DNA from: an uncultured virus (IMG/VR IMGVR_UViG_3300034066_002051)
Lineage: Duplodnaviria; Heunggongvirae; Uroviricota; Caudoviricetes
Virus record (IMG/VR): IMGVR_UViG_3300034066_002051
DNA length: 20,000 nucleotides
Reading direction: 5' to 3' (one strand)
The notes below the pieces were generated by a model. It was not told the origin of the DNA. It saw only the letters and a program-made list of their open reading frames with translations, and searched no databases. The position numbers and the translations under genes are program-made. Positions 2,743 through 16,317 of the stretch are shown piece by piece (the stretch's first letter is position 1; each line of letters opens with the position of its first letter).

Positions 2743-2960
2743 CACCAAATGCCAGGAATGATCTGCCCGGTTAAGGCATAGGCGCCAAATGCTGCAACGA
2801 TACCAAGCATGGCAAATCGGCCATTAAGCATCTCTGCACGTTCGTTATGAGTCTGGTAAGTTTCTTTTTCCATTTGTTCTGTAATGATAGGATCGATGTA
2901 CATTTCAGGTTCTTTGGCAAACATATTCTGTTGGCCAAATTCATTCGTGGTAACGGTCAT
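2742..2960 (-). CDS. hli: High-light-inducible protein
   Basis: AEMLNGRFAMLG chlorophyll-binding motif and TGQIIPGIW C-terminus typical of phage/multicopy Hli. Confidence 0.97.
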   Translation of the reverse strand: MTVTTNEFGQQNMFAKEPEMYIDPIITEQMEKETYQTHNERAEMLNGRFAMLGIVAAFGAYALTGQIIPGIW

Positions 2961-3817
2961 TAGAATTTGAAACCGAGACCAGTAGTGAATACAGGGGAAT
3001 AGGTACCATTGGTTGCACCGTAGCTATTAGAAGCATTGGTGGTAGGGAACTTGAGATCAGCAAAACCAACCAAGGAATTGGTCAGACGACCTTCGATGCC
3101 CAAGGCAAGAATTACTTGGCCTTTTTCACCAATAGCAGATTGGAAATTGGCTGCGGTATTATTCACAAAAGGAACTTGGTAACCGACACCGGTGTAGATA
3201 TTAGCGGCGCTTACGCCAGCTTTACGGGCGATACTCCAGTCATAAGAGAGAAGACCACCACCTGCTGCTCCAATCTCACCGGCAGGAGTGCCAACGAAAT
3301 TAGCATAAGGACGGACAGAAACAGCATTTTGGTTATTAAAGGTCTTTACAGCGTAACGACCTTGGACAGTACCACCAGAGATAGTACGGTTTTCAGTATA
3401 ACCATTGCCATCAATACCTTGCTTATTCAGAAGAACGCCAGCACCTAGGTAGTTGTTAACACCTTGGGCTTTTTGAGCAGCAATACGCTCAAGTTTAGTT
3501 ACACGAGTATCAACGCCAGCGAATTGGGCACGGAGAGCCTGAGCAAGTGCAGCATCTTTTGCATCTGCATATTCCTCGATGCGATCGAGACAAGCATTAG
3601 TCAGAGCAGCAAGTTGAGCACGAGTGGTAGGTTCGCCGGGCTGGAAAGTACCATTGGGGAATCCAACAGCGCAACCATACTTATCCTTGAGGTTCATGAT
3701 TGCCTGATACGCCCAGTTGGTCGGCTGGACATCGGGGAATTGACCTTGAGGAGCTGCAGTGGCAACACCAGGGGCGATTACGCCGAGTGCACCGATAGCT
3801 GAGACGAGTTTTTTCAT
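2960..3817 (-). CDS. SLH-domain outer-membrane beta-barrel (porin-like) protein
   Basis: Signal peptide; SLH domain FPDVQPTNWAYQAI..L..KYGC..GFPNGTF.....TRAQLAA as in cyanobacterial porins; coiled coil; amphipathic strands ending in GLGFKF. Confidence 0.85.
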   Translation of the reverse strand: MKKLVSAIGALGVIAPGVATAAPQGQFPDVQPTNWAYQAIMNLKDKYGCAVGFPNGTFQPGEPTTRAQLAALTNACLDRIEEYADAKDAALAQALRAQFAGVDTRVTKLERIAAQKAQGVNNYLGAGVLLNKQGIDGNGYTENRTISGGTVQGRYAVKTFNNQNAVSVRPYANFVGTPAGEIGAAGGGLLSYDWSIARKAGVSAANIYTGVGYQVPFVNNTAANFQSAIGEKGQVILALGIEGRLTNSLVGFADLKFPTTNASNSYGATNGTYSPVFTTGLGFKF

Positions 3818-4034: not shown

Positions 4035-4063
4035 ATTCTATCAGAAAATCCTCAGATGGTCAA
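4035..4063 (-). promoter_or_regulatory. Sigma70-type promoter for tRNA-Arg/Gly
   Basis: TTGACC (4063-4058), 17 nt, TAGAAT (4040-4035) with TGn extension. Confidence 0.7.
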
Positions 4064-4726
4064 TACCTTTTCATGGCCCACTCGGATTTTTGGATCAACC
4101 CATATGTCATAACCAGCATTTTTTGCATCGATGCAGAAGGAGACATCTTCTGAACATACATCTTCTAAATCTTCACCTATTTTTATAAGTTTTGGCGCAA
4201 ACCATGGATAGGAGATGGATTCAAACACGCCTCGTTTTATTAGCACCCAACCAAAACCAACATAATCAGCTTTAAATAGCGAATTACGTTTACTCATGGC
4301 ATCTTCGGAGATAAATTCAAAATATCCATGAGATTTGAAATATTCATCATCCATTTTTTCAACAATAGGAGTTAATCCTCCGGGTTGAATATACCAACCA
4401 GAGACTATATCTCTGTCCTGCTCAAGGAGTTTAAAAAAATCCGCTGAGGTGAATGCAATATCACTATCAATCCACATCATGTAGTCATATTCTATTGCCC
4501 CTCCAAATGGAACTTGGTACTTGCCACGGGTGACATTTGCACCCATTACTTTACACCTAGCGTAGTTAACCATGGAACTATAATCTTGGGAGATGATAGT
4601 ATTTATTCCAATTTGTCTACAATCTAATAGGAGTTGAGTAAATCGTACTAAAAACCTCCCAGAATAATGAGATCCTGGAAGGCAAAAAACAATAGTTTTA
4701 CCAAAGTAACGTCTATTTAGTTCCAT
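4052..4726 (-). CDS. GT-A fold glycosyltransferase (224 aa)
   Basis: DxD motif YMMWIDSD, GFGWVLIK.GVFE, SEDVSFC and RVGHEK. Start moved to ATG 4726 because the upstream ORF extension is tRNA-Pro. Confidence 0.85.
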   Translation of the reverse strand: MELNRRYFGKTIVFCLPGSHYSGRFLVRFTQLLLDCRQIGINTIISQDYSSMVNYARCKVMGANVTRGKYQVPFGGAIEYDYMMWIDSDIAFTSADFFKLLEQDRDIVSGWYIQPGGLTPIVEKMDDEYFKSHGYFEFISEDAMSKRNSLFKADYVGFGWVLIKRGVFESISYPWFAPKLIKIGEDLEDVCSEDVSFCIDAKNAGYDIWVDPKIRVGHEKVLTI

Positions 4727-4730
4727 AATA

Positions 4731-4804
4731 TCGGGATAGCAGGATTCGAACCCGCGACCTAATGCTCCCAAAGCATCCGCGCTACCAAGCTGCGCTATAT
4801 CCCG
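4731..4804 (-). tRNA. trnP: tRNA-Pro(UGG)
   Basis: CGGGATATAGCGCAGCTTGGTAGCGCG-GATGC-TTTGGGA-GCATT-AGGTCGCGGGTTCGAATCCTGCTATCCCGA. Confidence 0.95.
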
Positions 4805-4881
4805 TGGAGCCACAAGTCGGACTTGAACCGACGACCTACGGTTTACAAAACCGTTGCTCTATCCAGCTGAGCTATAGTGGC
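4805..4881 (-). tRNA. trnT: tRNA-Thr(UGU)
   Basis: GCCACTATAGCTCAGCTGGATAGAGCA-ACGGT-TTTGTAA-ACCGT...GTTCAAGTCCGACTTGTGGCTCCA; encoded CCA abuts tRNA-Pro with no spacer. Confidence 0.95.
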
Positions 4882-4914: not shown

Positions 4915-5337
4915 TTAATTTTCGGTTGTTTCAACAAAAGCAGTCTTGAAACCTTCAACTGCTGCTTGGGCCACCGCAAAATCATCCTCTACTGTCGAGC
5001 CGGAAACACCTACACCACCAAGAATAACACCATCTGGAGTAGTTAGAGGGACCCCGCCAGGAAAAGTAATAAGACCATTGTTAGAATGTTCAATATTATA
5101 CAGACTACCACCCGGTTGAGATAGTTTTCCAATTTCTTGAGTCTCCATGTCAAAAAATGTTGCTGTGCGAGCTTTCTTAATAGAGATGTCCACGCTTCCC
5201 ACCCATGCCCCATCTTCACGGGCAAAGGCAACCAAATTCCCACCACGATCAACAACCGCGATGTTCATCTTAGTGCCAATTTCATTACTTTTTTTCAAAC
5301 CTGCATTTACTGCTTGGATTGCTGCTGCAAAATACAT
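4915..5337 (-). CDS. GlcG/HbpS family heme-binding protein (PduO C-terminal-like)
   Basis: [19 protein letters not shown]...S.DIS.KKARTA and FPGGVPL....[10 protein letters not shown].....D..VA. ATG 5337 preferred because extended -10 TGGTATAAT lies at 5369-5361. Confidence 0.9.
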
Positions 5338-5392
5338 AAAAATCTTTAGATTACTAAACAATTATACCAGGTAAATTCCATAATTATCTCTA

Positions 5393-7274: not shown

Positions 7275-7601
7275 TCATCGTTTGATCATTTTAATATCAT
7301 AGTTCTCTGGAGAGAAATATTTAACCACATAAGAAATTAAAGCGTCGGAAAGTATTTCGCCGCATGAGAACATATCAATTGCTGCGCAATTATCCTCTGG
7401 CCAAGTATGAATTGAGAAATGCGATGTGCTAAGTAGGGCCAGATATGTATATCCTCCAGGTTCGAATTTATGAGATGACTCGCCTACGACCTCTGCCATA
7501 CATTCATCTAACATGGGTCTGATGAAATCTATAAAACCGTCCATCTCGGTTAGTAATAGGGCATCGACGCCATAAATATTGAGTAAAAAATGCTTTCCCA
7601 T
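7275..7601 (-). CDS. speD: Pyruvoyl-dependent S-adenosylmethionine decarboxylase-like proenzyme (108 aa)
   Basis: MGKH.L, HKFEP.G.T, SH.SIHTWPE, A.D.F.CG. The cleavage site reads TSH rather than ESH. Confidence 0.85.
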   Translation of the reverse strand: MGKHFLLNIYGVDALLLTEMDGFIDFIRPMLDECMAEVVGESSHKFEPGGYTYLALLSTSHFSIHTWPEDNCAAIDMFSCGEILSDALISYVVKYFSPENYDIKMIKR

Positions 7602-7602
7602 G

Positions 7603-8433
7603 TTAAAAGTTAAAAAGGTATATATCTGAGTTACTAGCACCGGCGAGTAATCTAGATTCTTTAAACTCTGGAATTACTAGATGGTCCATTTCTTTAAAAT
7701 ATTGTTTATAATCTATATCTACTCTCCCTCTTAACTCATATGAGGCGGATATTAATACTTTCCTTTTTAAACTTGAGAGTTCATTAATAACTCTTATAAA
7801 TTGGTGGAATTTGGCTTCATTCCACATCCATCCGGCTCCAAAACGTCCATATTCTCTTGGAAGATGCGCGTATACTATAACATTATCATTTATCACTCCT
7901 TCTCTAAAGGAAAAAAAGTCCTCTTCCCTAAAAAGTAGGTTTTTCTCGCGACTTATACGCGAAGCGTTTATAAGTTGGTCGGTTTTAAGTTTTGTAGGAA
8001 AAAATATGCCATCATATCCCTTATCTCTATACCTATGAGTAAAATTAGACCCAACCCATAACAAATAGAGCTCAGCGCATCTCTCCCACGTACTTAATTT
8101 GTCCTCGTATTCATTAAATTGCTCTTTGAGTTTTACATATCGCCATTTGCCAATATCATCTCTAAATCTAGTTGTATATGCATGGGACAAGGTAGATGAA
8201 ACCGTAGATGTTTTTATCCACTGATGCATTTTTGCTATATAGGGTTCTTTTGTCACCCCAATTCCACCCTTAGATTGGTATAAAAGACTCCCTGTGGTTA
8301 AATTCACATCATAGATGTAGAAATCTAATATATCCGGTCTTTGAATTAAAAATTCATCAAGAAACTTGGGTTCTCGGCCTGGATACTTAAATGTGAACAG
8401 TTGATTTGTCAAGTTTTCTCCAGTTTTTTCCAT
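7603..8433 (-). CDS. Degenerate Dam-like (D12 class) methyltransferase-fold protein
   Basis: Collinear with Dam: FKYPG (KW.GGK), YIYDVNLTTGSL (Y.EPF.G.GSV), AELYLL...NF..RY (AA.F.YLN...FNG.YR), DF..F......IVYAHLPR (DF...VY.DPPY), KVLIS (KVM.SN). Confidence 0.6.
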   Translation of the reverse strand: MEKTGENLTNQLFTFKYPGREPKFLDEFLIQRPDILDFYIYDVNLTTGSLLYQSKGGIGVTKEPYIAKMHQWIKTSTVSSTLSHAYTTRFRDDIGKWRYVKLKEQFNEYEDKLSTWERCAELYLLWVGSNFTHRYRDKGYDGIFFPTKLKTDQLINASRISREKNLLFREEDFFSFREGVINDNVIVYAHLPREYGRFGAGWMWNEAKFHQFIRVINELSSLKRKVLISASYELRGRVDIDYKQYFKEMDHLVIPEFKESRLLAGASNSDIYLFNF

Positions 8434-8788
8434 TATAAAAACAAATTAGATCTTGTGAGTAAAATCTAATAGTCCCTGGAGGATTTATTACAAATTTTTT
8501 CTCTCCAAAGGTATCATTAAGCAGGTATTCGGTATATTGTTCAGTATTTTCTACGATTTTGATAGATTTTTCTAGGAAAGCGAGGACTTCTGTATTGGTA
8601 AATCTGAGGGTCTTGGCAGCGTATAAAACTTGCTCACCTAGATCAAGATCATATCCGCATCCATTAGATACATTGTTTTTAAATGAGTAATATGAATGTT
8701 TGTCAGGTGAATTAACCAATTCACGTAACTCGAGGACCTTTTTAGGCTTAATTTGAGCGTAAATATCAGATCGTACAACAACTTTCAT
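8387..8788 (-). CDS. Hypothetical protein (133 aa)
   Basis: ATGA-coupled to the upstream gene; C-terminal GTIRF....ICFYNG..W resembles a fibre-type repeat. Confidence 0.7.
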   Translation of the reverse strand: MKVVVRSDIYAQIKPKKVLELRELVNSPDKHSYYSFKNNVSNGCGYDLDLGEQVLYAAKTLRFTNTEVLAFLEKSIKIVENTEQYTEYLLNDTFGEKKFVINPPGTIRFYSQDLICFYNGKNWRKLDKSTVHI

Positions 8789-9456
8789 AAATCCTCGTCC
8801 ATTAAGTCAAAAAGAAACTTTCTAATGTAAAAATCAGCAAATTTTTCGGAGAAATAGGCCTTTAAGATCCCATGAGCTGGGTCATGATCTCCCATATGAA
8901 GGTCATATTTCTTATGAAGTCCTAACATGGAGTGGGTTGGTTCCATCTCCTCGAGTAGAAGCTTATATCTTACCAGATATTCTTCCGCGGTTGAGTAAAA
9001 ATTGTTATAAAAATCATATCCTTTCTTCTTAAACCAAAATTTTTGTGAAAAGTATTGCTTTAAATCATAAAACTTTGAGGTTTCAGCCTCTGTATCGGGC
9101 ATATCATCGAGATAATTGTCAATGTACTCTCTCAAATACTCATCAGTCTGGGCAAGAGGGTGGAAATCGATACCCCCAAAGTACTTTTTCCCACCAATTC
9201 GTAGATATTCGCATCCAAATATAGGCGCCTCGGACATTTCCCATGGATAAATGACCAAAGTCTCTGCATAAAACTTTTCTGGAACGGATAATTGGCATAA
9301 TCTTGCCCTTCTGATCCCATCTCCGTCCCAAGTCCTAGAGACTATAGTGGCATTACCCGATGTTTCCATAAAAGAAAGACCGGAGGGGAACTCATTGGTC
9401 ATCCTCCAGTCAGGGAATACATTAGTTATCGCTTGATTCAAAATCATCAGAGTCAT
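8785..9456 (-). CDS. Ferredoxin-dependent bilin reductase, PebA/PebS-like but divergent
   Basis: RRAR, IYP.....PIFG, IDFHPL, FYD..QYFS, YD....HDPAHG.L...F...FA..Y...FLF motifs of the FDBR family. Confidence 0.88.
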   Translation of the reverse strand: MTLMILNQAITNVFPDWRMTNEFPSGLSFMETSGNATIVSRTWDGDGIRRARLCQLSVPEKFYAETLVIYPWEMSEAPIFGCEYLRIGGKKYFGGIDFHPLAQTDEYLREYIDNYLDDMPDTEAETSKFYDLKQYFSQKFWFKKKGYDFYNNFYSTAEEYLVRYKLLLEEMEPTHSMLGLHKKYDLHMGDHDPAHGILKAYFSEKFADFYIRKFLFDLMDEDL

Positions 9457-10755: not shown

Positions 10756-10784
10756 ATGATATCAGATCTTCTGAGTAATGTCAA
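10756..10784 (-). promoter_or_regulatory. Sigma70-type promoter overlapping the psbA stop codon
   Basis: TTGACA (10784-10779), 17 nt, TATCAT (10761-10756) with TGn extension. Confidence 0.7.
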
Positions 10785-11863
10785 CCAATAACCGGAGCCT
10801 TGAGAGCCACGGGGGTGGTTTCTGCGGCCGCAAGATCGAGAGGGAAGTTGTGAGCATTGCGCTCGTGCATCACCTCAAAACCAAGACCAGCGCGGTTGAG
10901 GATATCTGCCCAGGTGTTAATTACGTGACCGTTATTATCAAGCAATGATTGGTTAAAGTTAAAACCATTCAAGTTGAAGGCCATCGTGCTAACTCCCAGA
11001 GCAGCGAACCAAATACCAACAACAGGCCAAGCAGCCAAGAAGAAATGAAGACTGCGAGAGTTGTTGAAGGATGCGTATTGGAAGATGAGACGTCCGAAGT
11101 AGCCGTGGGCTGCAACGATGTTGTAAGTCTCTTCTTCTTGTCCGAATTTGTATCCATAGTTTTGACTCTCTACTTCTGTGGTTTCACGAACGAGCGAACT
11201 AGTGACCAAAGATCCATGCATAGCAGAGAAAAGAGAACCACCAAATACACCAGCCACCCCAAGCATATGGAAGGGGTGCATGAGGATATTATGCTCCGCC
11301 TGGAAAACAAGCATGTAGTTAAATGTACCTGAAATGCCAAGAGGCATTCCATCAGAGAAGGAACCTTGTCCAAATGGATATACGAGGAACACTGCAGTAG
11401 CAGCAGCCACGGGTGCGCTGTAGGCAACACAAATCCAAGGACGCATACCAAGTCGGTAAGAAAGTTCCCATTCCCGACCCATGTAGCTAAATACGCCAAT
11501 GAGGAAGTGGAAAACCACCAGTTGATAGGGACCGCCATTGTAAAGCCATTCGTCTAGCGAAGCAGCTTCCCAAATAGGGTAGAAGTGAAGTCCGATTGCG
11601 TTCGAACTAGGAACAACAGCACCAGAAATGATGTTATTGCCATACATTAGCGAACCAGCAACAGGCTCACGGATGCCGTCAATATCTACCGGAGGCGCAG
11701 CAACAAAGGCAACAATAAAGCAAACAGTTGCAGCAAGGAGGGTAGGGATCATCAGAGTACCAAACCAACCGACATAGAGACGGTTGTTGGTGGATGTTAC
11801 CCACTCACAGAACTGTTCCCACTGATTGCCAACACGCTGTTGGGCAATTGAAGAAGCTGTCAT
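10781..11863 (-). CDS. psbA: Photosystem II D1 protein
   Basis: Full-length 360 aa: [44 protein letters not shown]; uninterrupted; Gln at the 130-equivalent position. Confidence 0.99.
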
Positions 11864-11924
11864 AGTATTAAAATTTCGATGTTCAAGTTAAATATTCGGA
11901 GGGAATTGACCTTCCGATGGGATC

Positions 11925-11953
11925 ATTATAACCCATCTATGTCAGGAAATCAA
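11925..11953 (-). promoter_or_regulatory. Sigma70-type psbA promoter
   Basis: TTGATT (11953-11948), 17 nt, TATAAT (11930-11925). Confidence 0.7.
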
Positions 11954-13074
11954 GACATAGTATCTATCTTTAAACCGACCTTGATGGTATCGGAGAGATC
12001 AAGCGCCTCGGAGATTATTGCATCCATATTCAAATAGCGATAAGTAGCCAACCTACCAACAAACTTAACTTTAGTCTGCTTAGCAATTTCCTCTTGGTAC
12101 TTAGAAAGAATCTCTAGATCATCTGAAAGTCTCTTTGGGTAATAGGGGATGTCGCCTTGCTCTGTTTCCTTACTAAACTCTGTGAATATCACTGACTGAT
12201 CATGAGATTCCCAAGGGGTGAAATGTTTATGCTCATGTACGCGGGTGAAAAGTTGGTAGGTAGATGGGTAGTTTATAACTGCGTTTCCTTGAAGGTCTCC
12301 TCTGCCATATTCTTTCTCCCAGAATACAGTTCTATAGCCCAGTTGTCCGTGGGAGTAGTCGAAGTATTTGTCAATAGGTCCGGTATAAATCACCAAGTCA
12401 TAGTTATCATTATCAGAAATATCCCAAGACCTCCCCAGCTCAAGAGTTATGTTCTCATGGGAGATGATATTTTGAACTATTTGGGTATATCCATGCTTTG
12501 GAATTGCTTGCCACTTTGAGTTGTAATAATTATCGTCATAATTAAACCTCACAGGGAGTCGCTTGAGGATCGAAGCTGGGAGAGACGTAGGGTTACATCC
12601 CCATTGCTTCTCAGTATATCCCTTGAAGAAGGCTTCATAGAGACCTTTACCGATCATGCTAAGAGCCTGTTCTTCAAAGTTAGTTGGTTGAGGGTAGTCT
12701 TTGCTAGCTAACTTTTGGATATATTTTTTAGCTTCCGCTGGATTAAAATTTGTCTGGAAGAACTGATTGATTGTATGGAGGTTGATTGGTAGGGAGTAAA
12801 CTCCAGAGTCTATAGAGGCTTTTACTCTATTGACATAAGGTACCCACTCCCCGTACTTATTTACATATTCCCATACCCTGGGGATATTTGTATTGAAGAT
12901 ATGGGGTCCGTAAGTATGGACCATGATATTGGTCTTTTCATCTCGCTCAGTGTGGCAGTTCCCAGCAATATGCTCCCTCTCGTCGATTATATGTACTTTA
13001 CAACCAAAACTAGCCAACTCACGAGCTACCACAGAGCCGGAGAACCCGGCCCCTACTACTAGGACTTTTGTCAT
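11950..13074 (-). CDS. glf: UDP-galactopyranose mutase
   Basis: VVGAGFSG FAD motif, HIAGNC, H.YGPHIF, KQWG, RLPVR, R..EHKHF, PYYP, GRLATYRYLNMD. Confidence 0.95.
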   Translation of the reverse strand: MTKVLVVGAGFSGSVVARELASFGCKVHIIDEREHIAGNCHTERDEKTNIMVHTYGPHIFNTNIPRVWEYVNKYGEWVPYVNRVKASIDSGVYSLPINLHTINQFFQTNFNPAEAKKYIQKLASKDYPQPTNFEEQALSMIGKGLYEAFFKGYTEKQWGCNPTSLPASILKRLPVRFNYDDNYYNSKWQAIPKHGYTQIVQNIISHENITLELGRSWDISDNDNYDLVIYTGPIDKYFDYSHGQLGYRTVFWEKEYGRGDLQGNAVINYPSTYQLFTRVHEHKHFTPWESHDQSVIFTEFSKETEQGDIPYYPKRLSDDLEILSKYQEEIAKQTKVKFVGRLATYRYLNMDAIISEALDLSDTIKVGLKIDTMS

Positions 13075-14363
13075 GACATAATTTTCTCCATGAGATTAGG
13101 GACAATGCTCGCTGATGAAAAATACTTCATCATAAAATCAGAAGACTTCTTGCGATATTCGGTATACTTGTTGTCATCTTCCCAAATTTCTTCGAGCATA
13201 TCTACAAACTTTTCTGGCTCAAGCACTTGAGGACCACCCTTGGCTAGAGCTCTACCATCATCATCAATAGAGATAAACGTGTCAGTCTGACTCAGTAGGG
13301 TGTTTGTATTAGGTATAGTGACATTATCTAAGAAATGGCGGTGGTAGATAGGAACTGAGAGTAGAGCAGCTTCGATACCCTGGTATTCGATAAATGTGTT
13401 TCCATAGCAGAGTTTATTATGCTCAAAAGTTCTTGGTTGAGTAGCAAAAGCTGACTCGGCAATTCTCTTCAGGCCACGATGATAGTCATAAGAACCAATT
13501 ACGTACATAAATTGAGGATCTTGGCCGACTTCATCGAGCCAATCCATAAGTTGACTATTTATTTTTGAGTTGGAGAATGGAGAAGGACCTTTGATAGGCT
13601 TGATAAAGTCAGTGGATTTGAACCAATCAAGCACTCCTTCATAGTTTTTAAGTTGAGTATAACCGGCGATCGAACGCTCAAAGCCGATCATCTCAGCGAT
13701 AAACCCTTTATCCGCGAGGAGTTTTTGCAGATTGAGGATCAGTGATCCACGTTTCCATGCGACTGCTCTACTGGCATGGATGACCCGTTTTTTGCGGGTA
13801 TCCTTCTCAAGATTGATCAAATGCTGGATGAATGGGACATGGAAAAAGATATCAATCTTCTCCATCGGAGGAATAATTGCATTTTGCTTCTCCATCCACT
13901 CAATAAACCCCGAGTTTGTTTTATTTAGTGAGTGCGCCATGACTTTATCGCACGATTCGATCGCGTTTTTAAAATCTGCGTTTCTTTTAAATGTATGAGC
14001 GTGGTGATCATGATTCACCATTACTTTTTTACGGTCGATTTTTTCAATAATCTCAGAAACATACCCATTTGTAACCGTATCGGGTTCTGATGTGTCTGGG
14101 ACAGAGAAAATAAGAATCACATCGTACCCAGAATTGACTTTATCAACAACTTCTTGCTTATCTTCGTACTTAAAAAACTTAACATCCATATCGGAGGAGG
14201 TATCAGACCTACCAACTTTGGTTTGTAGCGCAAAAATATCACATACTCCACCAACGGAATCATAATACCCCTTCATATGGCGGGAATAGTTACTAACTCC
14301 GCACCCCTCAAGGCCTCGGAGAAGGAGAATTGCTACTTTTGGTAGTTTCGGGGCATTAGACAT
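13071..14363 (-). CDS. agt: DNA alpha-glycosyltransferase, homologue of T4 alpha-glucosyltransferase (GT-B fold, 430 aa)
   Basis: RGLEGCGV, SVP.TS, HDH....RN, D....HS, R...WK, G.ERS and EY..IE match the T4 AGT motifs in order; ATG 14363 lies just after the terminator. Confidence 0.85.
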   Translation of the reverse strand: MSNAPKLPKVAILLLRGLEGCGVSNYSRHMKGYYDSVGGVCDIFALQTKVGRSDTSSDMDVKFFKYEDKQEVVDKVNSGYDVILIFSVPDTSEPDTVTNGYVSEIIEKIDRKKVMVNHDHHAHTFKRNADFKNAIESCDKVMAHSLNKTNSGFIEWMEKQNAIIPPMEKIDIFFHVPFIQHLINLEKDTRKKRVIHASRAVAWKRGSLILNLQKLLADKGFIAEMIGFERSIAGYTQLKNYEGVLDWFKSTDFIKPIKGPSPFSNSKINSQLMDWLDEVGQDPQFMYVIGSYDYHRGLKRIAESAFATQPRTFEHNKLCYGNTFIEYQGIEAALLSVPIYHRHFLDNVTIPNTNTLLSQTDTFISIDDDGRALAKGGPQVLEPEKFVDMLEEIWEDDNKYTEYRKKSSDFMMKYFSSASIVPNLMEKIMS

Positions 14364-14366
14364 AAT

Positions 14367-14402
14367 AAAAAAAAAGGTATAAGCTATTAACACTTATACC
14401 TT
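14367..14402 (-). terminator. Intrinsic terminator after the topoisomerase gene
   Basis: AAGGTATAAG-TGTTAATAG-CTTATACCTT followed by a T-run (9 T in total). Confidence 0.75.
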
Positions 14403-14415
14403 AACCAGTTACTTT

Positions 14416-16317
14416 TTATTTGCTAGGCTTAGGAATGTTCTTCATCCATTCCTTGAGGTCATTCTCAATGCTCTTAATCTTAGCATCTTCCCTCTCTTTC
14501 ATGAAAGAAGTCCAAGAATGCTTACCCCTAGATGGCATTCCCTTCTTAGTAGCCGATTCTTTCATCTTATCGAGTAGGATTTTGCGCTCTGCGCGCCCTT
14601 TACGGGTTAAAAGTTGTTGGGAGTGATTCCAATCTTCTTTAAATTGGTCCCATTCTGCCTTGATGTTGGTCTTTCCGGCCACTTGAGTGAAGAATTTACT
14701 CAACTCAGACCTCTTCATACCGATCCTTTTCCCCTCTTCTTTGATCCGATCCTTCGGACTCGGCATCTTCACCCTACGCGTGCCAGATTGAGTGGTGATT
14801 TTGGCTTTCTCAATACCAATTTCTTGCTTTTCAACCAACATACTCCGGCGTTTATCAGCAAATTCTTTGAAATCGCTGATCTGGGAGATGATATGCCCAT
14901 CCATTTTGGCTGAATTTGTCACGATCTCGGTCAGATTGGCAATTTTTGCCTCAAGATCGGCCTTCTCGCTCTCCAGTTCAAGGCGCTCTACCCCCACCAA
15001 TCGGCTGAGAGGCATGGAGAGGACCGCCTGGACCTGGATATCGCTCAACTTCCAGCGCTTTTTAAGCTTCCCGGCCGCGATCTCCTTGGTCTTCGAACCC
15101 CTAATGAGTTTAATTACCTCATCGATATCCGCCAAGATGGTTAAAAGGCCATCAAGGATGTGGACTCGGGAAGAAAGTTTGTCGCACTCAGCCACATACC
15201 TAGACTTTAGGGCTTCGCATCGTGCCCCGTACCACTCGGCAATGATATCCTTCACCCCGAAGATGGTAGGGAGGCCACTAGAGATGGCCGTGGCATTAAC
15301 GCCAATGCTATCTGCCAGGTTTGTAAAGGCAAGAAGTTGGGAGATTACGGTATTTGCTTCTACTCCGGTCTTTAGGATGACTTGGATTTCAATACCGTCA
15401 CGGGATGAGTGGTCTTGGGCATCGATGACACCCACGATTTTTTCTGATTCGACTGAGTCCTTGAGTTTTTCAAGGAAGCGTTCTGAGCTCCCGCTAGCCA
15501 AAGAGGTAATAATAATAGCATCTCGAGTAGACCGTTTTCCGTGTTGGACTTTTTTTACCTCCCAAGTACCATAAGTCTTGAGAGATCCGCTGCCCTTTTC
15601 AAAAGCATTAAACACTGCCTCATCGTTTAAAATCCGAGCGCCATTGGGCAGATCGGGTCCCTTGATGAAGGAGAATAGGCGCTTAGGAGTAATGCGTGGA
15701 TTTTTAATATATTCAATAGTGCCCTTGATCACCTCGGAAAGGTTATAAGGGACATGATGACAGGCGTAACCTGCTGCGATACCCTGCGCCCCGTTGATAA
15801 GAAGGGCCGGGATAACGGGGACAATCTCAATGACTTCTTTCGTCGAGCCGTCATAGTTATCTCGCCATTGGCAACTATACTTATCTATCTCGGTGATGTA
15901 AAGTCGTTGGGTGAGGGCGCTAGTCTTCACCTCAAGGTATCTTGCAGCTGCCGGAGCGTCTTCAGAAATGGATTGACCGACGCTCGGCCCGGATTGAATA
16001 CTACCTCCAACGTTGCCATGGATGTCAGTAAGAAGATACCGAAAAGAATCAGATTGACCCATATTAATAGCCGTACCAGCGCAGCCGCCTTGCGGGTGGT
16101 ACGAGCCGAGGACATGGCCCTCGAGCCTCGATACTTTCTTGTATTGGCCATCAGGACGAAGATTGAGATCTTTAAGGCCGAGGATAATTCGGCGTTGAGC
16201 GGACTTAAGTCCATCGGTGACAGAGGGTAGAGCCCGGTTGAAGATCGCCACGGAGTAGGTGAGATAACTACTCTGTAACTCTTCTTTTAGGGATACTGGG
16301 ATGATTTCTGTTGACAC
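14416..16317 (-). CDS. Type IIA topoisomerase subunit A (GyrA/ParC-like) lacking the beta-pinwheel CTD
   Basis: RALP...DGLK..QRRI, YHP.G, HGN.G, PAAARY (catalytic Tyr), LLING..GIA.G, GPD.P.G, HIL.GL....ID.VI..IR, Q..A.L.M.L.RL. Confidence 0.93.
   Translation of the reverse strand: MSTEIIPVSLKEELQSSYLTYSVAIFNRALPSVTDGLKSAQRRIILGLKDLNLRPDGQYKKVSRLEGHVLGSYHPQGGCAGTAINMGQSDSFRYLLTDIHGNVGGSIQSGPSVGQSISEDAPAAARYLEVKTSALTQRLYITEIDKYSCQWRDNYDGSTKEVIEIVPVIPALLINGAQGIAAGYACHHVPYNLSEVIKGTIEYIKNPRITPKRLFSFIKGPDLPNGARILNDEAVFNAFEKGSGSLKTYGTWEVKKVQHGKRSTRDAIIITSLASGSSERFLEKLKDSVESEKIVGVIDAQDHSSRDGIEIQVILKTGVEANTVISQLLAFTNLADSIGVNATAISSGLPTIFGVKDIIAEWYGARCEALKSRYVAECDKLSSRVHILDGLLTILADIDEVIKLIRGSKTKEIAAGKLKKRWKLSDIQVQAVLSMPLSRLVGVERLELESEKADLEAKIANLTEIVTNSAKMDGHIISQISDFKEFADKRRSMLVEKQEIGIEKAKITTQSGTRRVKMPSPKDRIKEEGKRIGMKRSELSKFFTQVAGKTNIKAEWDQFKEDWNHSQQLLTRKGRAERKILLDKMKESATKKGMPSRGKHSWTSFMKEREDAKIKSIENDLKEWMKNIPKPSK

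Follow-up and report, generated by a model that had tools for sequence, protein, structure and literature searches.

A T4-type DNA glycosyltransferase gene coupled to a UDP-galactopyranose mutase gene in freshwater TIM5-like cyanophages: a candidate system for galactofuranosyl modification of DNA

In the current study we analysed a 20,000-nucleotide stretch of DNA from an uncultured tailed virus (IMG/VR record IMGVR_UViG_3300034066_002051; hereafter the window), in which the gene for a homolog of the DNA alpha-glucosyltransferase of phage T4 (AGT) is directly followed by, and overlaps, a gene for UDP-galactopyranose mutase (Glf, or UGM). The source of the window is a freshwater TIM5-like (Aurunvirus-like) cyanomyovirus, and AGT-glf is a two-gene unit between a topoisomerase II gene and psbA. 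The reading that best accounts for the data, to which we assign a probability of roughly 0.45, is that Glf feeds the DNA glycosyltransferase, so that the phage DNA would carry a galactofuranosylated cytosine; in this full chain we infer which sugar is donated, in which ring form, and to which base. The unit consists of the following elements:

13071..14363, minus strand: AGT homolog of 430 amino acids (aa), glycosyltransferase fold GT-B, T4 alpha-glucosyltransferase (GT72) family (phrog_2888, Foldseek)
11950..13074, minus strand: glf, UDP-galactopyranose mutase of 374 aa, intact (PF03275, PF13450)
13071..13074, minus strand: ATGA shared by the AGT stop and the glf start (direct reading of the letters)

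T4 AGT moves glucose from UDP-glucose onto 5-hydroxymethylcytosine (5hmC, or hmC) in duplex DNA. Membership of the 430-aa open reading frame (ORF) in the T4 AGT family, which a preliminary description of this DNA had proposed from the order of its motifs, is settled. The protein matches phrog_2888 ('alpha-glucosyltransferase') with an E value of 2.1e-87, residues 16-429 aligning with profile positions 2-400 of 421, and a sequence search of the Protein Data Bank (PDB) returned T4 AGT chains as the sole matches below E 0.1 (2.7e-11; next match 0.25). The Pfam model AGT (PF11440) gave 22.9 bits, below its cut-off of 25, and covered the N-terminal half of the model only. At an overall identity of 22-23% to T4 AGT, the motifs RGLEGCGV, SVPDTS, HDH(6)RN, R(3)WK, GFERS and EY(3)E occur in this order and align residue for residue with the T4 enzyme, with spacings slightly longer than those first noted. 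Their core residues, which we take to serve in catalysis or UDP binding according to the motif, are invariant across the window AGT, four TIM5-like sequences and T4 AGT, and are likewise retained in a HMMER alignment to 1y6f. A structure model of the AGT homolog based on 64 homologs reached a pLDDT of 93.4 (an earlier model from a four-sequence alignment, with a pLDDT of 40.3, was unusable), and the first nine Foldseek matches to it were all T4 AGT chains (E 6.6e-22 to 2.2e-19; TMq 0.74-0.80; TMt 0.85-0.88; top TM 0.80/0.87), followed in tenth place by PimB' at E 1.7e-10, eleven orders of magnitude behind. The foreseen relationship to T4 AGT was thereby borne out by profile and structure searches alike.

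The 374-aa ORF is, judged by its sequence, an intact Glf, in agreement with what had been claimed for it. The GLF domain PF03275 is matched over its full profile (1-203 of 203; E 2.5e-71) and the FAD-binding N-terminal domain PF13450 at E 7.2e-18, while the NCBIfam equivalog TIGR00031 scored 294.4 bits, 9 bits below its cut-off of 303.75. The alignment with UGM of Klebsiella pneumoniae (3gf4; 462 bits) is free of gaps with an offset of 2, and the expected residue types are kept at every position that we take to form the K. pneumoniae active site (H60, N84, F151, F152, Y155, T156, W160, R174, Y185, R250, R280, Y314, R343 and Y349). The window Glf thus resembles the K. pneumoniae enzyme (3gf4/2bi7) in its FAD-binding motif and active-site residues, but differs from bacterial UGM in being viral and in its partner, which is a DNA-type glycosyltransferase and not an O-antigen or cell-wall galactofuranose (Galf) transferase. 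Its identity is 37-49% with the products of the Cyanobium glf loci compared, 61% with one Cyanobium protein, about 60% with homologs of numerous phyla, and 40.5% with the Glf of Rhizobium phage RL38J1.

The letters at the junction read ...ATT ATG TCA TGA / ATG ACA AAA..., so that the overlap of the AGT stop with the glf start at 13071-13074 stands as previously described. The same arrangement is present in contigs from lake metagenomes, which span the psbA-glf-AGT-topoisomerase II junctions (3764 nt over 11420-15186 in run X17; 2566 nt over 11096-13661 in run X4). Adjacency of AGT and glf was observed directly in the window and five further loci, in which the AGT is 98-100% or 87% identical to that of the window. 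In order to place these cases in context, the slot between AGT and psbA was surveyed in 29 IMG/VR loci encoding AGT relatives, with the following outcome:

Glf: 4 of 29 loci, AGT identity 87-100%
Short-chain dehydrogenase/reductase (SDR) epimerase of 302/303 aa: 2 of 29 loci
Empty, psbA directly after AGT: 17 of 29 loci
GIY-YIG endonuclease and unknown ORFs: 1 of 29 loci
Heme oxygenase / PurS region: 1 of 29 loci
Contig ends at AGT: 2 of 29 loci
Distant AGTs (34-41% identity) in other DNA-metabolism contexts: 2 of 29 loci

One JGI metagenome contig (L148, 98% identical) adds a further Glf case, and the slot is also empty in cyanophage S-TIM5. The AGT-glf synteny on which the preliminary description had counted therefore holds for part of the group, namely four of the surveyed loci and the JGI contig, and fails in the 17 loci with an empty slot and in S-TIM5. 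In scans of metagenome contigs and repeated scans of viral contigs with an alignment of the glf clade, L148 was the only new case and the AGTs of 61-80% identity discussed below were not recovered, while tblastn detected no glf or SDR remnants in the glf-less loci.

The SDR found in the slot of two loci is, on sequence grounds, a GalE-like epimerase of nucleotide diphosphate (NDP)-sugars closest to short UDP-glucose 4-epimerases (PF01370 at E 5e-60; best PDB match the UDP-glucose 4-epimerase 4zrm at E 4e-51). In L010/L040 and L011 its gene begins at the AGT stop with an overlap of 4 bp, as glf does, and since the two genes do so in different lineages, two different NDP-sugar enzymes occupy the same coupled position. 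The SDR genes lie at 7266-8174 in L010 and 5150-6061 in L011, and candidate substrates of the enzyme are UDP-Glc, UDP-GlcNAc and UDP-GlcA; host genomes already carry galE.

Beyond the directly observed cases, AGT homologs at 80, 78, 70 and 61% identity in a large protein database pair with Glf homologs at 70, 70, 67 and 60%, a linkage that rests on equal longest contigs (10862, 9795, 17692 and 36582 nt) and equal sources, not on direct adjacency. These AGTs and the directly observed glf cases form one clade of 12 tips with a support of 1.0, which suggests that the AGT-glf pair has been co-inherited over considerable divergence. Eight alignment columns (114, 124, 196, 273, 309, 312, 325 and 330) are invariant among the AGTs of the glf clade and invariant, in another state, among the glf-less clades, position 325 being a one-residue insertion (I325) immediately N-terminal to the EY...E motif; these columns are leads only, and the column filter favours conserved motif regions.

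For the acceptor base, the window's own contig (74 kb, approximately 46% complete) contains no thymidylate-synthase (TS) homolog, and its missing half was represented by G001, a 159-kb IMG/VR genome rated complete, whose AGT is 98% identical. G001 and S-TIM5 each encode exactly one TS homolog, that of G001 at L023, 17151-17987, and these were aligned with E. coli ThyA, T4 gp42, the 5-hydroxycytosine (5hoC) synthases of RB69 and RL38J1 and canonical synthases. Following the residue rules for TS-family specificity (positions 177, 169 and 143) given in PMC13326640, the G001 protein is N177D with D169, C143 and N168, and the S-TIM5 protein is likewise N177D with D169. Asp177 is common to T4 gp42 and both 5hoC synthases, whereas true thymidylate synthases have Asn, and the TS homolog should on account of Asp177 act on dCMP. 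An acceptor of the RB69/RL38J1 type, i.e. 5hoC, was rejected, as D169 is kept and the D169N change of the RB69 and RL38J1 enzymes (N169) is absent.

On the side of the sugar donor, galE scored over its cut-off in 94 of 101 sampled genomes of the host family, and glf did so in 39 of 301 (13%). With galE near-universal and glf rare, UDP-galactopyranose should be generally available to the phage and UDP-galactofuranose usually not, and a phage whose hosts supply the former would need only the last step. The stronger argument that the host is unable to make UDP-Galf at all is weakened by the 39 glf-bearing genomes. No NDP-sugar enzyme besides Glf was found in the 159 kb of G001.

Taken together, the following chain may be proposed. 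The N177D TS homolog, seen for the window phage only in the sister genome G001, would make a C5-modified dCMP, most likely 5-hydroxymethyl-dCMP, which would then be incorporated into the phage DNA. Glf, whose enzymatic identity is clear, would in this setting turn host UDP-galactopyranose into UDP-galactofuranose, and the AGT homolog, a retaining GT-B enzyme by family, would place galactofuranose on the hydroxymethyl group of the DNA. The resulting galactofuranosyl-hmC DNA would be left uncut by type II and CRISPR nucleases and would not be recognised by type IV nucleases specific for glucosyl-hmC. The slot behind AGT would accordingly represent a swappable donor-tailoring position that may be empty (as in S-TIM5-type phages), or hold a GalE-like epimerase or Glf. 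The functional coupling asserted in the preliminary description is rendered more likely by the epimerase in the same slot elsewhere, by the N177D TS homolog and by hosts in which galE is common and glf rare; it is rendered less so by the frequency of short overlaps, a second glycosyltransferase and the lack of recognised TET/JBP, dCTPase and dNMP kinase genes, as set out below.

It is conceivable, and we put it forward tentatively, that sister phages decorate hmC with different sugars (glucose, a 4-epimer or galactofuranose) by exchange of the gene in the donor slot, the Glf lineage bearing galactofuranosyl-hmC and a retuned AGT pocket. Candidates for such retuning, read from the alignment, are the I325 insertion by EY...E, T124 in HDH...RN and H196 before R...WK.

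Several observations weigh against the proposed chain, the first set of which concerns the acceptor. At position 143, where known hydroxymethylases have Asp or Glu and methylases Leu, the TS homolog has Cys, and its product could on this ground be 5-methyl-dCMP. No Tet_JBP domain was detected at E <= 1 in G000, G001 or S-TIM5, and the route to 5hmC by way of a methyltransferase and a TET enzyme was rejected on this basis. The expectation that a dCMP hydroxymethylase or a TET/JBP dioxygenase would be encoded elsewhere in the genome is consequently satisfied only by the N177D homolog of G001, with the reservation that its Cys143 is not of hydroxymethylase type. Pfam and PHROG searches revealed no recognisable dCTPase or dNMP kinase. 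In addition, a gene for a Dcm-type C5 cytosine DNA methyltransferase (G001 L023, 15247-16461) lies approximately 700 bp from that of the N177D TS homolog; complete replacement of cytosine is thereby argued against, since such a methyltransferase would then be pointless.

The second set concerns the coupling itself. Of the 126 pairs of neighbouring ORFs on one strand in G001 (crude ORF call), 25 share 4 bp, and the ATGA shared by AGT and glf, being of such a common kind, indicates compaction and not specific coupling. A sugar enzyme was gained in the slot independently on only two apparent occasions, and the sister relationship of the epimerase clade to the glf clade has a support of only 0.55. 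The motifs shared with the glucose-using T4 AGT are all kept, so the pocket may still accept a pyranose. Auxiliary metabolic genes cluster in an island downstream of AGT, with psbA, bilin reductase and speD in the window and heme oxygenase or 6PGD in relatives, and glf could be one more gene of this kind. Galf glycans exist in some hosts, given that 13% of the host-family genomes carry glf. Finally, about 7 kb from AGT-glf the window encodes a possible alternative user of UDP-Galf:

4052..4813, minus strand: GT-A-like (GT2-like) putative glycosyltransferase (phrog_1574 at E 2.4e-81; phrog_34859 'glycosyltransferase' at E 3e-5)

This protein gave no Pfam match, and the Atlas ties it to Glycos_transf_2-like viral clusters.

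An alternative that draws on much of this second set, and that we regard as unlikely though deserving of serious attention, holds that the sugar which the AGT adds to phage DNA is a pyranose supplied by the host, namely glucose as in T4 and, presumably, S-TIM5, and that glf, a separate auxiliary gene, came to lie in the variable island before psbA, its product serving another transferase or the glycans of the host surface or virion, e.g. in superinfection exclusion. It would fit the full retention of the T4 AGT motifs, the frequency of 4-bp overlaps in G001, the variable presence of glf in the host family (39 of 301 genomes), and a slot that is itself variable, lying beside auxiliary metabolic genes and containing GIY-YIG, heme oxygenase or PurS genes in relatives; annotated glf genes are, moreover, present in phage-collection records labelled as Streptococcus suis and Lactobacillus phages. 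Under this alternative the UDP-Galf would be consumed by the second putative glycosyltransferase (4052-4813) or by host Galf-transferases, but a 69%-identical homolog of the former is present in S-TIM5, which lacks glf, and this protein therefore does not track glf. It must further be set against this alternative that the sole NDP-sugar enzyme found in the genome stands directly behind the sole DNA-type glycosyltransferase, that another lineage has a different NDP-sugar enzyme in the identical position and with an equal overlap, and that the AGT-Glf linkage appears to persist down to approximately 61% AGT identity.

A further reading, in which the substrate of the AGT homolog is not DNA but a protein, lipid or small molecule that it glycosylates jointly with Glf, is improbable. 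The incompleteness of the recognised hmC pathway (dCTPase, dNMP kinase, TET), the Dcm-type methyltransferase with its implication of unmodified cytosines, and the mere 22-23% identity to T4 AGT could be cited in its favour. However, T4 AGT chains take all of the first nine places among the structural matches, with other GT-B enzymes far behind, a TS homolog of the dCMP type is present, and neighbours with roles in DNA replication and nucleotide metabolism are constant even for the most distant AGT homologs: topoisomerase II is located upstream of AGT in every TIM5-like locus that extends upstream of AGT, and the most distant homologs adjoin ThyX/Dam/DNA polymerase or ribonucleotide reductase genes.

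Some UGM homologs accept UDP-arabinose or UDP-N-acetylgalactosamine (UDP-GalNAc), which counts towards a last alternative. We consider it highly improbable that the coupling is real and that Glf makes UDP-arabinofuranose or UDP-GalNAc-furanose for an arabinosyl- or N-acetylhexosamine (HexNAc)-type base: arabinofuranosylated cytosines are known in phages according to PMC13326640, but the window Glf scores 462 bits with the canonical UGM of K. pneumoniae, to which it is much closer, and 257 bits with the UNGM of Campylobacter (4mo2), and genes for UDP-arabinose or UDP-xylose synthesis were not found in the sister genome G001.

Returning to Glf as donor enzyme of the DNA glycosyltransferase, precedents exist for individual parts of the scheme. 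In PMC13326640, arabinofuranosyl-5-hydroxycytosine is described in RB69 and DLP3, GT-B enzymes are predicted to install alpha-arabinofuranose on the cytosine of both phages, and in RL38J1 (Pootjesviridae) Glf is proposed to make UDP-Galf for the attachment of galactose to 5-hydroxycytosine. Experimental evidence for phage DNA glycosyltransferases whose 5hmC activity depends on a co-expressed adjacent epimerase is given in bioRxiv 10.1101/2023.12.21.572611. The statement in the preliminary description that no galactofuranosylated DNA base had been described is dated in view of the arabinofuranosylated cytosines, the proposal of a phage Glf for DNA galactosylation in RL38J1 (both in PMC13326640) and the epimerase-dependent DNA glycosyltransferases.

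The system in the window differs from each of these relatives in identifiable ways. With T4 AGT (GT72; 1xv5, 1y6f) the window AGT shares its fold, the same ordered motifs and a place among replication genes, but it is only 22-23% identical, belongs to a non-T4 cyanomyovirus with a mitochondrial-type family A polymerase and is coupled to Glf; the I325 insertion and seven other fixed differences separate its clade from the glf-less clades, and T4 is without a donor-tailoring enzyme. The S-TIM5 protein gp011 ('alpha-glucosyltransferase', NC_019516) is an ortholog at 54-55% identity with the same topoisomerase II-AGT-psbA synteny, and the N177D TS homolog of S-TIM5 is 78% identical to that of G001, but S-TIM5 and three sequenced relatives are without glf, the gap between AGT and psbA is 222 bp in S-TIM5, and all four are marine whereas the window phage occurs in lake metagenomes. 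The subclass II clusters of bioRxiv 10.1101/2023.12.21.572611 resemble the present case in that a DNA glycosyltransferase stands beside a donor-supplying NDP-sugar enzyme, and L010 and L011 fit them directly. These clusters, however, make 5hmC by means of a C5-methyltransferase and a TET-like dioxygenase (5mYOX), whereas no Tet_JBP was found here and the TS homolog is the candidate source; their partner is an epimerase and not a mutase, and the word 'mutase' is absent from the accessible text of that preprint. RL38J1 resembles the window phage in that a phage Glf is proposed, in PMC13326640, to feed cytosine glycosylation in DNA, but its 5-hydroxy-dCMP synthase carries D169N where the TIM5-like enzyme keeps D169, its glf is not adjacent to a glycosyltransferase and its glycosyltransferases are outside the AGT family.

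The paired-enzyme idea being already known, what is new is that a GT72 DNA glycosyltransferase would have an exchangeable donor-tailoring partner (a mutase in the window phage), and that it would do so in cyanophages of a lineage without known DNA modification. A paper on TIM5-like diversity merely labels the gene 'DNA alpha-GT', and the cyanophage AGT-glf pair did not turn up in the accessible parts of the literature on the S-TIM5 glucosyltransferase, on cyanophage UGM or hydroxymethylcytosine and on galactofuranose in phage DNA, a scope that did not include the original S-TIM5 description. As a separate observation, a gene for a Glf-like protein (phrog_9677, 31% identity) is located downstream of the topoisomerase II and motA genes in T4-like Aeromonas phages (L151, Aeromonas phage Aes508, 4953-8732), and two proteins of approximately 350 aa from PHROG families of unknown function, encoded beside the Aes508 gene, might be its transferases.

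The borders of the unit and the signals around it are as follows:

14416..16317, minus strand: DNA topoisomerase II subunit, upstream neighbour of AGT (PF00521 at E 1.3e-95; synteny)
14364..14402, minus strand: terminator-like hairpin (14402-14374, 11-bp stem) and T-run up to the AGT ATG
11925..11953, minus strand: promoter-like TTGATT-17-TATAAT, overlapping the glf stop and 5' of psbA (10/12 consensus match only)
10781..11863, minus strand: psbA (D1), downstream border of the slot (PF00124 at E 1.4e-90; phrog_182)

The minus strand is open over 13071-14393 from a GTG, and an ATG at 14363 yields 430 aa; the latter is the likely AGT start, since the GTG at 14393 falls within the hairpin and the AGT relatives in databases are called at 430 aa. 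A terminator and promoter upstream of the pair and a psbA promoter downstream had been described previously. The hairpin with its 11-bp stem and T-run is indeed present between the topoisomerase II stop (14416) and the AGT ATG (14363), but the upstream promoter is just a 9/12 match that overlaps the hairpin; the downstream element exists at 11953-11925 and is likewise only a partial consensus match. In the region, 11 promoter-like sites were observed against 9.0 +/- 3.2 expected from shuffles, which is not above chance, and 5 terminator-like sites against 2.8 +/- 2.2, so that such motifs at AGT-glf constitute weak evidence, promoter-like sites being no commoner than in shuffled sequence. Lake samples differ in the length of the T-run that separates the hairpin from the AGT start codon (14364-14373), 1 or 3 bases being absent at 14367 in runs X20 and X17 (X20 is labelled RNA-Seq but is probably DNA).

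The assignment of the source phage is founded on its contig, which encodes a mitochondrial-type family A polymerase, dCMP deaminase and Mu-like portal genes in a gene order as in S-TIM5. At the DNA level, the match of the whole window to the phage collection, S-TIM5 included, is essentially limited to psbA, and megablast of the AGT-glf region against the same collection gave no match. The closest cellular psbA genes, at 92%, are those of Cyanobium and lake picocyanobacteria, and the window stretch recurs in lake-water metagenomes of many studies. Genes for an HbpS-like haem-degrading protein, S-adenosylmethionine decarboxylase and a ferredoxin-dependent bilin reductase (4915-5361, 7275-7640 and 8785-9456) form a pigment and polyamine island beside psbA.

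A number of further features were noted in these genomes. The window encodes a 285-aa protein (2960-3817) with an S-layer homology (SLH) domain (PF00395 at E 2.9e-9) and no PHROG match, and G001 a 918-aa protein (L024, 8978-11734) with a C-terminal ADP-ribosyltransferase exoenzyme domain (PF03496 at E 6e-12). In L046, L048, L049 and L051 psbA is in two pieces around an ORF of 200-230 aa, and in L048 a GIY-YIG endonuclease gene additionally lies in the slot; the split psbA and the GIY-YIG gene near the slot look like the activity of a mobile intron or homing endonuclease. The most divergent TIM5-like AGT (41% identity; L058, 2432-6525) is encoded between ThyX and Dam methyltransferase genes, near a mitochondrial-type polymerase, and the nucleotide-metabolism gene set of L058 differs from that of G001.

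If the proposed chain is correct, a mutase would join the enzymes that tailor sugar donors for phage DNA, for which epimerases and arabinose pathways are known so far, and the product would be the first hexofuranosyl hydroxymethylcytosine as well as the first hypermodified cyanophage DNA beyond 2-aminoadenine. A DNA enzyme that transfers galactofuranose could, moreover, be of use in labelling 5hmC. The three states of the slot in syntenic genomes (no partner, epimerase or mutase) would constitute a natural series in which to follow the change of donor specificity in GT72 enzymes and the diversification of DNA glycans under pressure from modification-dependent nucleases. Sugar hypermodification of DNA would thereby extend to the cyanophages, which help to control the primary producers of lakes.

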